DNA from: Mustelus asterias
Taxonomy: Eukaryota
Direction: 5' to 3'
DNA: 64,000 nucleotides
Assembly: GCF_964213995.1 (NCBI RefSeq)
Contig: NC_135820.1
Span: 930,001-994,000, forward strand
Of this stretch, positions 49,001 through 52,085 are shown in pieces; the stretch's first letter is position 1; each line of letters starts with the position of its first letter. The notes under the pieces were generated by a model that made no database searches, was not told where the DNA came from, and worked only from the letters and a program-made list of their open reading frames with translations. Both the position numbers and the translations under genes were made by a program.

Positions 49001-52000
49001 AGAGATAGGGAGGGGGTGTAGGAGCTGGAGAGGGTTACAGAGATAGGGAGGAGGTTACAGAGATAGGGAGGGGTGTAGGGGCTGGGGAATGTTACAGAGA
49101 TAGGGAGGGGGTGTAGGGGCTGGAGGAGGTTACAGAGATAGGGAGGGGTGTAGGGGCTGGAGGGGGTTACAGAGATAGGGAGGGGGTTACAGAGATAGGG
49201 AAGGGTGTAGGGGCTGGGGAATGTTACAGAGATAGGGAGGGGTGTAGGGGCGGAGGGGGTTACAGAGATAGGGAGGGGGTTACAGAGATAGGGAAGGGTG
49301 TAGGGGCTGGGGAATGTTACAGAGATAGGGAGGGTTGTGTGAATGAGAGGGGAGGATGATGGGTGAGAGGGTGCGTGTTGGTGTGGGTCGGAGGAGGGGA
49401 GTTGGGTGCACCCCTGGACAGATAGTCGAATCTGGGAACTAGAATGAGGTCCAGTCGAGCTGACACTTACATTGAACATCCAGGAGGAAGGTCTGTGAAG
49501 ATTGGGCGTTGGAGACAGGATAGTGAGCGTGACAACTCACTGTCGTGTTGTGATCCCCCGCAGTCGGGAGGAAGCTGAGGGAGGTGGTGGAGGAGAGCTC
49601 ACTGCTGTTGCTCCAGTCAGTCTGATTGACGGCACTGGATGTATTTAACCCCGAGACATTCGCCCACGTCAGGCTGGGTCCCATTCCGGGGCACGGGTGG
49701 AGGAAGGAACAGGTCAGAACGCTCAGCTTGTTCTCCACCATCGGAAAAGATGCGGAAATGTTAGGTTTCAACTCCAAATCTGGCAGCAAGAAGAGAAAAC
49801 ACAGAGTTAAAAATCGGAGCCATTCAGCCCCTCGAGCCTGTTACACAGGAACAGGAGGAGGCCATTCAGCCCCTCGAGCCTGTTACACAGGAACAGGAGG
49901 AGGCCATTCAGCCCCTCGAGCCTGTTACACAGGAACAGGAGGAGGCCCCATTCAGCCCCTCGAGCCTGTTACACAGGAACAGGAGGAGACCCCATTCAGC
50001 CCCTCGAGCCTGTTACACAGGAACAGGAGGAGGCCATTCAGCCCCTCGAGCCTGTTACACAGGAACAGGAGGAGGCCATTCAGCCCCTCGAGCCTGTTAC
50101 ACAGGAACAGGAGGAGGCCCCATTCAGCCCCTCGAGCCTGTTACACAGGAACAGGAGGAGACCCCATTCAGCCCCTCGAGCCTGTTACACAGGAACAGGA
50201 GGAGGCCATTCAGCCCCTCGAGCCTGTTACATAGGAACAGGAGGAGGCCTCATTCAGCCCCTCGAGCCTGTTACACAGGAACAGGAGGAGGCCATTCAGC
50301 CCCTCGAGCCTGTTACACAGGAACAGGAGGAGGCCCCATTCAGCCCCTCGAGCCTGTTACACAGGAACAGGAGGAGGCCATTCAGCCCCTCGAGCCTGTT
50401 ACACAGGAACAGGAGGAGGCCCCATTCAGCCCCTCGAGCCTGTTACACAGGAACAGGAGGAGGCCATTCAGCCCCTCGAGCCTGTTACACAGGAACAGGA
50501 GGAGGCCCCATTCAGCCCCTCGAGCCTGTTACACAGGAACAGGAGGAGACCCCATTCAGCCCCTCGAGCCTGTTACACAGGAACAGGAGGAGGCCATTCA
50601 GCCCCTCGAGCCTGTTACACAGGAACAGGAGGAGGCCTCATTCAGCCCCTCGAGCCTGTTACACAGGAACAGGAGGAGGCCATTCAGCCCCTCGAGCCTG
50701 TTACACAGGAACAGGAGGAGGCCCCATTCAGCCCCTCGAGCCTGTTACACAGGAACAGGAGGAGGCCATTCAGCCCCTCGAGCCTGTTACACAGGAACAG
50801 GAGGAGGCCCCATTCAGCCCCTCGAGCCTGTTACACAGGAACAGGAGGAGGCCATTCAGCCCCTCGAGCCTGTTACACAGGAACAGGAGGAGGCCATTCA
50901 GCCCCTCGAGCCTGTTACACAGGAACAGGAGGAGGCCCCATTCAGCCCCTCGAGCCTGTTACACAGGAACAGGAGGAGGCCCCATTCAGCCCCTCGAGCC
51001 TGTTGCACAGGAACAGGAGGAGGCCATTCAGCCCCTCGTGCCTGTTACACAGGAACAGGAGGAGGCCCCATTCAACTAACTCAAATTACCCTCTCTCTAA
51101 CCGTGTGAGGACAGTGTAGAGGGAGCTTTACTCTGTATCTAACCCCGTGCTGTACCTGTCCTGGGAGTGTTTGATGGGGGACAGTGTAGAGGGAGCTTTA
51201 CTCTGTATCTAACCCCGTGCTGTACCTGTCCTGGGAGTGTTAGATGGGGGACAGTGTAGAGGGAGCTTTACTCTGTATCTAACCCCGTGCTGTACCTGTC
51301 CTGGGAGTGTTTGATGGGGGACAGCGTAGAGGGAGCTTTACTCTGTATCTAACCCCGTGCTGTACCTGTCCTGGGAGTGTTTGATGGGGGACAGGGTCGA
51401 GGGAGCATTGCTCTGTATCTAACCCCGTGCTGTACCTGTCCTGGGAGTGTTTGATGGGGGACAGCGTAGAGGGAGCTTTACTCTGTATCTAACCCCGTGC
51501 TGTACCTGTCCTGGGAGTGTTTGATGGGGGACAGGGTCGAGGGAGCATTGCTCTGTATCTAACCCCGTGCTGTACCTGTCCTGGGAGTGTTTGATGGGGG
51601 ACAGTGTAGAGGGAGTGTTACTCTGTACCTAACCCCGTGCTGTACCTGTCCTGGGAGTGTTTGATGGGGACAGTGTAGAGGGAGCTTTACTCTGTATCTG
51701 AGCAAATTAAGTTTACCTGAAGTGATTAAGGTGAGAGGTTTGCTTTTGTACGTCTGGTTCTGATCGAGAAGTTGGATGATGAATTGGTACGTCCCATTAT
51801 CCTCATCACTGATACCGTTCAGAAAAAGGGAACACTGGAGTTGGGAGAAGTTTCCGATGAGCTGTGATTGGGATATGTTATCCCGGTGTGTGGAATTCTG
51901 GTCGGTCTGGTTTAGCGTCACCTCAGTGAAGAGTTGATCATCCTTGTACCAAGCTTCTTGTCGCTGTGTTGAGTTGAGTGTCTTGGGGAGAGTGTAGTTA

Positions 52001-52085
52001 CACGGAATCATGACACACAATCCATTCTGTGCTCTCAGTACTTCCGGCAGATTTATAGTCCAGTTAGTTTCTGTCGACAGGACCC
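21747..52085 (-). CDS. Siglec-family (MAG/CD33-related-like) inhibitory receptor, multi-exon: join(complement) 52085-51717, 49779-49471, 39612-39355, 32223-31939, 30408-30130, 27496-27203, 23902-23797, 23156-23075, 22013-21747; about 750 aa excluding leader
   Basis: Six Ig exons, each phase 1-1 with AG/GT boundaries and lengths divisible by 3 (369, 309, 258, 285, 279, 294 bp), then a TM exon and two cytoplasmic exons in register to a TGA stop. Siglec hallmarks: GLCVxIPC and QCSL cysteines in D1, TCSxxHPCP in D2, ITIM plus ITSM-like tail. Confidence 0.9.
22075..22835. repeat. 42-44-bp minisatellite (GGAACAGGAGGAGGCC[CC]ATTCAGCCCCTCGAGCCTGTTACACA)n, from an antisense CR1 3' tail
   Basis: Tandem units; compare 45117-45160. 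Confidence 0.92.
23075..23156 (-). CDS. Siglec-like gene exon: first cytoplasmic exon
   Basis: ttaatctttccag|G acceptor, TTG|gtataa donor; (R)[27 protein letters not shown]; phase 2 to 0 exactly bridges the TM exon and last exon. Confidence 0.75.
23243..23700 (+). repeat. 52-bp CR1-derived minisatellite
   Basis: Same unit as 12384-13038. Confidence 0.92.
23797..23902 (-). CDS. Siglec-like gene exon: transmembrane segment
   Basis: gtgttttcag|GA acceptor, CGGAG|gtaaga donor; [36 protein letters not shown] (a frame not shown in the ORF track); phase 1 to 2. Confidence 0.88.
23929..27160 (+). repeat. 33-bp minisatellite (23929-26829, about 88 units) followed by a degenerate DeuSINE body and tail
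   Basis: Array, then ...aagatccc...ctatttgggagaagag...ggccaatatttatcc...tgggatcttgctgtgcgc...cattgcaacagtgac. Confidence 0.92.
27203..27496 (-). CDS. Siglec-like gene exon: membrane-proximal Ig domain D6 (MAG Ig5-like)
   Basis: cccttttcag|AC acceptor, AAAG|gtgaga donor; [44 protein letters not shown]...[10 protein letters not shown], four-Cys pattern as in MAG domain 5. Confidence 0.9.
27525..29321 (+). repeat. 69-70-bp minisatellite (CACTCCCAGGACAGGTACAGCACGGGGTTAGATACAGAGTAAAGCTCCCTCTACACTGTCCCCATCAAA)n
   Basis: About 26 tandem units. Confidence 0.95.
30130..30408 (-). CDS. Siglec-like gene exon: Ig domain D5
   Basis: caccttgcag|AT acceptor, GAGT|gtaagt donor; YSPKEV...[23 protein letters not shown]...[13 protein letters not shown]. 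Confidence 0.92.
30440..31298 (+). mobile_element. Degenerate CR1 3' fragment with two internal tandem expansions (about 68 bp x3; 33 bp x about 9)
   Basis: [20 protein letters not shown]...[13 protein letters not shown], then (GAGAATGTGGGACTCGCTCCCACGGGGAGTGGG)n. Confidence 0.8.
31365..31930. repeat. G-rich 20-bp repeat (GGGTGTGTGGGCGAGGGGGT)n
   Basis: Tandem periodicity; G-quadruplex-prone; starts immediately inside the D4 donor. Confidence 0.9.
31939..32223 (-). CDS. Siglec-like gene exon: Ig domain D4
   Basis: ttgttttgcag|AC acceptor, ACAT|gtgagt donor; YAPRNLSI...[17 protein letters not shown]...[14 protein letters not shown]. Confidence 0.92.
32300..32940 (-). mobile_element. Degenerate CR1 3' fragments
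   Basis: ggccattcagccc tail; minus-strand [19 protein letters not shown]. Confidence 0.65.
32943..33430 (+). mobile_element. CR1 3' end
   Basis: [11 protein letters not shown]...[14 protein letters not shown]...TRGH; tail ggccgaagggcctgttt...ctctatgactcta. Confidence 0.88.
33527..39216. repeat. Large 37-bp L2-derived minisatellite (33527-33761 and 35215-39216)
   Basis: More than 100 units, split by the CR1 insertion. Confidence 0.93.
33761..35210 (-). mobile_element. Young 5'-truncated CR1 (HER1-like) inserted into a 37-bp array
   Basis: ORFs 34674-35171 and 33847-34626 ([23 protein letters not shown]); (AGAACAT)n tail at 33761. Confidence 0.93.
39355..39612 (-). CDS. Siglec-like gene exon: Ig domain D3
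   Basis: ctctgctatcag|AT acceptor, GAGT|gtgagt donor; YGPRI...[15 protein letters not shown]...[14 protein letters not shown]. Confidence 0.92.
39939..41716 (-). repeat. 69-70-bp minisatellite, inverted
   Basis: Reverse complement of the 27525 unit. Confidence 0.95.
41720..42250 (-). mobile_element. Old CR1 3' end with a short 33-bp expansion
   Basis: FLTQRV...[21 protein letters not shown] on the minus strand. Confidence 0.7.
42552..43722 (-). mobile_element. LINE family 'B' RT 3' half with in-frame 39-bp expansion, nested in an older plus-strand CR1
   Basis: MFADYCTMF...[18 protein letters not shown]...([13 protein letters not shown])x6...[11 protein letters not shown]. Confidence 0.85.
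43889..46208. mobile_element. Cluster of Rex1/Babar fragments (43889-44042 -, 44280-44530 -, 44923-45105 +, 45715-46208 +) interleaved with CR1 pieces
   Basis: High identity to 9064-9872; CR1 minus 45105-45665 splits one Rex copy. Confidence 0.8.
46575..47050 (-). repeat. 33-34-bp CR1-derived minisatellite (CCCACATTCTCCCCACTCCCCGTGGGAGCGAGT)n
   Basis: Continues into CR1 [13 protein letters not shown] sequence. Confidence 0.88.
47345..47640 (+). mobile_element. tRNA-derived SINE sharing its 3' tail with LINE family 'B'
   Basis: B box ggttcgaatcc at about 47415; core gaaaacccatctggttc...ggaaatctgc; tail gggcaagtaaggatggacaatagctgctggcccagcca. Confidence 0.75.
47745..49333. repeat. 37-bp L2-derived minisatellite
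   Basis: Tandem units including shortened variants. Confidence 0.92.
49471..49779 (-). CDS. Siglec-like gene exon: Ig domain D2
   Basis: cttgctgccag|AT acceptor, CAAT|gtaagt donor; DLELKPNIS...[18 protein letters not shown]...[22 protein letters not shown]...LDVQ, typical Siglec second domain. Confidence 0.92.
49818..51075. repeat. 42-44-bp CR1-tail-derived minisatellite
   Basis: Same unit as 22075-22835. Confidence 0.93.
51109..51699 (-). repeat. 69-70-bp minisatellite, inverted
   Basis: Ends about 17 bp from the V-exon donor. Confidence 0.93.
51717..52085 (-). CDS. Siglec-like gene exon: V-set Ig domain (D1)
   Basis: tttcttccaag|GG acceptor, TCAG|gtaaac donor; [31 protein letters not shown]...AWYK...[23 protein letters not shown]...LTLITS. 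Confidence 0.92.

Follow-up and report, generated by a model that had tools for sequence, protein, structure and literature searches.

Several primate Siglecs lack the F-strand arginine that is essential in functional Siglec lectins, namely human Siglec-XII (R122C), the Siglec-5/14 of great apes (Arg to His or Tyr) and human SIGLEC17, as described in the accessible portions of PMC7876704, PMC6288428 and PMC7379906. Siglec-XII still recruits Shp1/Shp2 without this residue, and why such Arg-less Siglecs persist is an open question even for this human protein, whose ligand is unknown (PMC7876704, same portions). A 2025 review, in the sections available, treats mutation of the Arg as a step in host-pathogen co-evolution (PMC13358205). 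Here we analyse a Siglec-type gene of Mustelus asterias whose first immunoglobulin (Ig) domain, D1, carries Ile at this site. It lies in a stretch of 64,000 nucleotides (assembly GCF_964213995.1, contig NC_135820.1, positions 930,001 to 994,000), referred to below as the window, and encodes NCBI XP_078092342.1 (P0002; 766 aa), named 'myelin-associated glycoprotein-like'.

As in the primate cases, the essential Arg is mutated while relatives keep it, the tail is inhibitory, and independent losses are found in related lineages. The primate losses are recent point changes in CD33-related Siglecs, partly polymorphic or heading to pseudogenes, whereas the shark gene belongs to an old, single-copy orthogroup with three different replacements at the Arg site, in which further pocket residues have been lost and D1 carries 5-9 N-glycosylation sequons. 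Loss of the Arg alone is an ordinary, known and fairly common event: the residue is absent from 45 of 237 other Siglec-like V domains (12 of them with Lys), which lowers the surprise of finding one more. This comparison set of unique sequences (276 at the start, 244 with the interdomain Cys, less the 7 orthologue rows) does not sample such domains at random; it contains cluster representatives and inner V domains, and some of its rows may be misaligned. What this gene adds is the recurrence of the loss within one old orthogroup, together with dense, conserved glycosylation sites on the former binding domain. No paper on shark Siglec pockets was found in a literature search that lay outside most subscription journals and may have missed reviews of shark Siglecs, and the subject is not treated in the available passages of a fish Siglec paper (PMC7226832) and a survey of the Ig superfamily (PMC13262535).

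A Siglec V-set domain without the essential arginine

D1 is encoded by one open V-set exon with AG and GT ends, in which the codon at the Arg site is ATC (Table 1). In a phmmer search of PDB sequences sialoadhesin came first (E 8.8e-12), and Ile120 fell, in gap-free alignments, on the Arg of the F-strand FR in sialoadhesin and CD33 and on the F-strand Arg of MAG. An AlphaFold model of D1 (55-row alignment, mean predicted local distance difference test score (pLDDT) 85.4) places Ile120 in strand F; Foldseek ranked sialoadhesin first for this model, and Siglec-15, MAG and sialoadhesin lead in VIA-align (Z 15-16.5, root-mean-square deviation 1.8-2.0 Å). The register proposed in the initial annotation, a Siglec V-set domain with ATC in place of the essential Arg, is thus borne out by alignment and by structural model, and so are its kept Siglec cysteines. 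C46 and C102 form the B-E intrasheet pair of a V-set, with the Pfam V-set and Ig_CD22 profiles over cut-off, while C41 and the HPCP Cys of D2 align with MAG and are predicted to form the D1-D2 interdomain disulfide.

Sialoadhesin (Siglec-1; PDB 1qfo, 1od7) is the best match of D1 by sequence and by Foldseek, and shares its strand-A Trp and B-E cysteines. Unlike sialoadhesin, the Mustelus protein has Ile at the site of Arg97 and, depending on register, Thr or Gln at that of Trp106; its ectodomain is short and its tail inhibitory. Residue numbers Arg97, Trp106 and Tyr127 are those that we take to apply in the human and mouse Siglecs.

Among 30 V exons fetched from the genome, D1 included, the Arg site holds Arg in 26, Lys in 1 and Ile in 3; its codon is AGA in 23/30 and ATA in the two other Arg-less exons with Ile. 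That ATC lies two substitutions from any Arg codon, as first pointed out, is correct and excludes a sequencing error, but it does not show selection, since AGA to ATA followed by a silent change also gives ATC. The other Ile pair, L028 and L030 (G000:C20, 15.01 and 15.17 Mb), is unrelated: it has the same GTYQFI motif and was placed elsewhere on a long branch, in a quick tree only, and the V exon of L028 is followed by C2-like and MAG-D5-like exons. The Lys at the Arg site belongs to a cluster V exon (L002, G000:C20:654187-654525) that also has Arg for the B-strand Cys and is probably defective.

Splicing and selective constraint

Splicing was judged from exon-to-exon joins in contigs whose source runs are not on record as RNA. 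Contig X1, identical in sequence, breaks off at both D1 splice sites and continues into the signal exon and D2, and then from D2 into D3. Contig X5, from a related species (organism B), has the same joins, including D2 directly to D3, and keeps the Ile codon unchanged, so the Ile is older than the split between Mustelus asterias and organism B; run X6 gave no cover on D2. Over D1 the same-species contig sets (X1, X4 and X2) show no difference in 3/3 cases and may stem from the assembly's own source samples. Contigs X1, X2, X4 and X5 thus all carry the Ile codon and none an Arg codon, and an assembly error was rejected on the agreement of the same-species contigs and the retention of the codon in the second species.

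The ratio of nonsynonymous to synonymous rates (dN/dS) against organism B was calculated from the listed differences (27 of 30 in D1 and 16 of 17 in D2), a listing that leaves out any close to the end of a contig. D1 and D2 together have 27 nonsynonymous and 16 synonymous differences, giving a dN/dS of ~0.49 (Fisher p=0.038), with dS ~0.13-0.14 and, as the sole indel, an in-frame 3-base deletion. Over the two domains taken together, the gene has therefore remained under constraint since the split. On the open exons, the splicing and this ratio, a pseudogene was rejected. The frame is open, transcribed as far as exon joins tell, and ends in a kept tail with an immunoreceptor tyrosine-based inhibitory motif (ITIM) and a motif resembling an immunoreceptor tyrosine-based switch motif (ITSM). 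Both are conserved in 7/7 orthologues, the ITIM being invariant, so that the intact gene with an inhibitory tail described initially was recovered.

State of the sialic acid-binding pocket

The loss extends beyond the Arg. Of the two pocket aromatics, the strand-A W26 is kept while the G-strand aromatic is replaced by Gln128 or Thr129, according to whether the register is CD33-like or MAG-like, and the residue two after the Arg site is Gln. The D-strand Arg, present in 6/6 other named orthologues and 197/237 other V domains, is Gln90 in Mustelus and Pro in organism B. D1 has 7 basic residues, of which R35, K52, R59, R85 and K131 differ in organism B; K65 and K133 remain there, the position of K133 being basic in none of the other named orthologues. 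With 5/7 of these residues changed in organism B, the pocket has no conserved Lys or Arg that could stand in for the lost one, and a compensating basic residue was rejected, comparison with organism B and the orthologues yielding no conserved candidate.

The protein is therefore a Siglec by descent and fold in which the features that define the lectin are missing, and we class it with the Arg-mutant, Siglec-XII-like kind rather than with functional Siglec lectins. The initial annotation had inferred a functional non-lectin Siglec, which might recognise a protein ligand or escape sialylated pathogens, both of these roles being hypothetical. For the canonical pocket the non-lectin reading stands, with the Arg, the G-strand aromatic and the D-strand Arg lost and no conserved basic substitute, and, judging from sequence comparison, canonical sialic-acid binding by the Mustelus protein is very unlikely. 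For binding in general it is less certain, because Siglec-6 binds glycolipids without the canonical Arg (PMC10122656, in the part available).

Orthologues and probable repeated loss of the arginine

In order to place the gene, a tail-based search was made, in which 7 of 1334 candidates were retained, comprising only the Mustelus gene and proteins of Scyliorhinus, Pristiophorus, Heptranchias and Mobula; the S. torazame and M. birostris orthologues were added through cluster look-ups. The resulting orthogroup of 7 rows (Mustelus, two Scyliorhinus, Heptranchias, Pristiophorus and two Mobula) forms one clade in a D1+D2 tree (support 97/95). A full-length tree of the 7, rooted on Mobula from established knowledge, agrees with the accepted species tree (100/98, 100/99). 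The initial suggestion to look for orthologues in other sharks thus led to a single-copy shark-and-ray orthogroup within which Arg loss is recurrent. The Arg site is I in Mustelus, R in both Scyliorhinus, R in Heptranchias, T in Pristiophorus and Q in both Mobula. These states require at least three changes, and a clade made up of the four Arg-less rows is rejected in an approximately unbiased (AU) test (p=0.0002). Descent from an Arg-bearing gene is supported by the Arg kept in the catsharks and Heptranchias, and one ancient Arg-less branch was rejected for the Mustelus gene, because close orthologues keep Arg and because of the AU test. From the trees, the Arg has most likely been lost three times in the orthogroup (to Ile, Thr and Gln), the losses in the sawshark and the devil rays being apparently separate from that in Mustelus.

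When the 122 D1 columns of the orthogroup are ordered from slowest to fastest, that of the Arg stands at 98 and that of the strand-A Trp at 89. The pocket thus behaves as unconstrained, which suggests that it was released from constraint in the orthogroup. The catsharks keep the Arg and have Cys for the strand-A Trp, with the G-strand aromatic gone, and a full pocket may be held only by Heptranchias. The orthogroup is thus a natural gradient, in which the pocket is apparently complete in Heptranchias, partly degraded in the catsharks and Arg-less in three separate states, with the tail fixed, which allows testing whether loss of sugar binding accompanies a protein ligand, glycan shielding or ligand-free signalling.

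Sequons of D1

Mustelus D1 has 9 sequons, and the ectodomain (~600 residues) 31. By genus, the orthogroup has 9, 6, 5, 5 and 8 in D1, whereas 191/237 other V domains have two or fewer and 0/237 more than 6 (Mann-Whitney p=4e-5); the other 29 of the 30 V exons in the genome have 0-4. The sequons at N47, N96 and N127 are present in 7/7 orthologues, with both Asn and Thr invariant at N127, and that at N25 in 6/7, in a column where 0/157 other V domains filled there carry a sequon. Five of the 19 invariant D1 columns are N25, N47, N96, N127 and T129.

N25 and N127 each come immediately before one of the pocket's two aromatic positions. With the MAG register, the FG loop reads N-Q-Y in MAG and N-Q-T here, so one change would remove the aromatic and create the sequon; with the CD33 register, an aromatic is retained in Heptranchias and Pristiophorus. 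A glycan 6-8 residues past the Arg as a general cause of Arg loss is unsupported, by the comparison given below.

Proposed function and alternatives

Our view, which we hold to be about an even call, is that the protein is a non-lectin inhibitory receptor under a cover of glycans, and that its two tyrosine motifs signal when lectins cluster the receptor through its own N-glycans. The D1 sequons would be occupied, with the glycans at N25 and N127 fencing the old pocket; Arg-bearing Siglec paralogues, the CD22-like neighbour or galectins would engage the receptor glycans and so cluster the protein; and the tail, by analogy with human Siglec-XII, would recruit SHP-1/SHP-2. Given what is established for Siglecs, the protein would not be expected to bind sialic acid canonically. 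CEACAM1 is a heavily N-glycosylated ITIM Ig receptor, and the binding face of CEACAM N domains is glycan-free. The Mustelus protein resembles CEACAM1 in its dense sequons on an Ig stalk and its tyrosine inhibitory motifs, and differs in belonging to an unrelated subfamily and in having the old pocket flanked by sequons. A further and rather unlikely step would be a role reversal, in which an old shark-and-ray Siglec lineage swapped glycan recognition for glycan display: an early change of the pocket aromatic to Thr would have made an N-glycan site and freed the Arg for repeated loss, and the receptor's own sialylated N-glycans would act as a cis ligand coupling it to neighbouring CD22-like and CD33-like Siglecs.

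Several results weigh against this picture of a shielded, constrained receptor. Heptranchias keeps the Trp, Arg, Glu and possibly an aromatic alongside the same sequons. Among other V domains, a sequon 6-8 residues past the Arg is found in 12/152 Arg-bearing and 1/30 Arg-less cases (p=0.70), and as it is not tied to Arg loss there, a glycan alone need not block the pocket. D1 by itself is not significantly constrained against organism B (18 nonsynonymous, 9 synonymous, dN/dS 0.57, p=0.23), D2 by itself falls just short of significance (9 and 7, dN/dS 0.38, p=0.07), and Mustelus D1 is no faster than catshark D1 (16 vs 13, p=0.58). In addition, the D1+D2 tree weakly joins Mobula to Mustelus (82/79), in which case Arg versus non-Arg needs only two changes.

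A possible reading, to which we give clearly less weight than an even chance, is that D1 has switched to a host or pathogen protein ligand bound on a glycan-free face, as in PD-1, TIGIT and SIRP-type inhibitory receptors, with the glycans only shaping access. The intact V-set fold and the conserved tyrosine motifs fit it, and a bacterial protein is bound by Siglec-5/14 independently of sialic acid (PMC6288428, in the portion cited above). D1 is also the least or nearly least conserved domain in most orthologue pairs (31-52% identity across families), and in Pristiophorus D1 and D2, but not D3-D6, are accelerated relative to Heptranchias (p=0.016 and 0.046, uncorrected). On the other hand, what is invariant in D1 belongs to the core or to sequons and marks out no obvious conserved patch on the surface, little of the surface of the 122 residues is left free by their nine sequons, and there is no candidate ligand. 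Alternatively, D1 could be drifting under relaxed constraint, the lectin role having become redundant with the large Arg-bearing cluster nearby. D1 would then be a spacer, in a gene perhaps on its way to decay like human SIGLEC12. A D1 dN/dS indistinguishable from 1, radical Mustelus changes (R59 and E61, where orthologues are hydrophobic), the Arg retained by most V exons of the genome and the loss of one C2 domain all point this way: Mustelus has six Ig domains, against seven in all 6 named orthologues, whose extra C2 domain falls at the place of the intron 39612-49471, and no remnant of the missing C2 exon was found across the window. We nevertheless consider decay improbable, given the open frame and splicing in two species at the dS found between them, the survival of the orthogroup, its ITIM invariant, in both sharks and rays, and the invariant sequons.

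A non-canonical site could instead bind anionic glycans, sialylated or other; this has a precedent in Siglec-6, which binds gangliosides at the V/C2 interface independently of the canonical Arg (PMC10122656), and the cysteines linking D1 and D2 are kept. The D-strand Arg, a presumed counterpart of Siglec-6 Arg92 (Siglec-6 being outside the alignment), is however Gln here and Pro in organism B, D1 is acidic, and its basic residues differ between the two Ile-bearing species, making such a site more doubtful still than decay. The automatic name raises a last explanation, a diverged shark MAG acting as myelin adhesion protein. In its favour, the Mustelus gene adjoins a CD22-like gene, and in mammals MAG lies next to CD22. 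MAG is the best full-length match in PDB (E 2.8e-80), the last Ig domain resembles MAG D5, and ITIMs occur in fish MAGs, according to the part of PMC7226832 available. Set against this, D1 is just 26% identical to that of mouse MAG, with neither the Arg nor a WxxW motif, the ectodomain has six Ig domains (seven in the orthologues) instead of five, the MAG-D5-like domain is common to many shark paralogues, and the orthogroup diverges rapidly. An exact motif pattern search for a separate true MAG gave no match, such a pattern overlooking diverged copies. Of all the explanations we find the MAG one the least probable. The glycan-covered, non-lectin receptor is the reading that we prefer.

Gene organization and locus

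The ten exons run from 57323 to 21747 on the minus strand, are all open, as the initial annotation had it, and have GT-AG ends; their joined translation equals XP_078092342.1 exactly. The protein has a signal peptide, the V domain, five more Ig domains, an uncharged membrane span and the two tyrosine motifs. Searches with D2 and with the tail gave one genome match each, indicating a single-copy gene.

Table 1. Positions of the exons and of selected D1 sites of the Siglec-type gene in the window
Feature	Position	Strand	Remarks
Signal-peptide exon	57272..57323	-	Start ATG at 57323; tblastn, exon check; spliced contigs X1 and X5 continue into it from D1
D1 exon	51717..52085	-	Siglec-type V-set without the essential Arg; 9 N-glycan sequons; 7 K/R and 12 D/E
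Ile120 codon ATC	51778..51780	-	Essential-Arg position; unchanged in contigs X1, X2, X4, X5
Sequon N127-Q128-T129	51751..51759	-	FG loop/start of strand G, place of the stacking aromatic in Siglecs
Sequon N25-W26-T27	52057..52065	-	Directly at the strand-A pocket Trp
Gln90	51868..51870	-	In place of the D-strand Arg
D2 exon	49471..49779	-	C2-set; partner Cys for the predicted D1-D2 disulfide; 6 sequons
D3 exon	39355..39612	-	Ig; skipped in frame in NCBI isoform X2
D4 exon	31939..32223	-	Ig
D5 exon	30130..30408	-	Ig
D6 exon	27203..27496	-	Membrane-proximal Ig, resembles MAG domain 5
Transmembrane exon	23797..23902	-	Hydrophobic span without charged residue
First cytoplasmic exon	23075..23156	-	
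Last coding exon	21747..22013	-	ITIM LHYACI 21828-21845; ITSM-like TQYAQI 21759-21776; stop

At 3015-10080, the opposite strand carries the tail of the adjoining CD22-like gene, so that the two genes stand tail to tail; the last exons of the CD22-like gene (3015-3080 and 9904-10080, plus strand) hold several tyrosine motifs. A relative of this gene, P0027, with at least two V-like domains, shows a match to a V exon (L025) located 37 kb before the window. There are 32 V-exon matches in the genome, most within the megabase before the window, and no neighbouring Siglec V exon was found in the 60 kb upstream. After masking of tandem repeats and N, only ~27.5 of the 64 kb of the window are left, with reverse-transcriptase fragments of long interspersed nuclear elements (e.g. 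53693-55225 and 33850-35174) taking up much of the rest.

D5 shares 99% identity with the corresponding domain of a paralogue (P0162), with which D3, D4 and D6 share only 34-45%. The Heptranchias equivalent is 95% identical to its own paralogue and 53% between orthologues, with 71% for S. torazame. This pattern suggests that a stalk domain, and not the ligand domain, has repeatedly undergone gene conversion.

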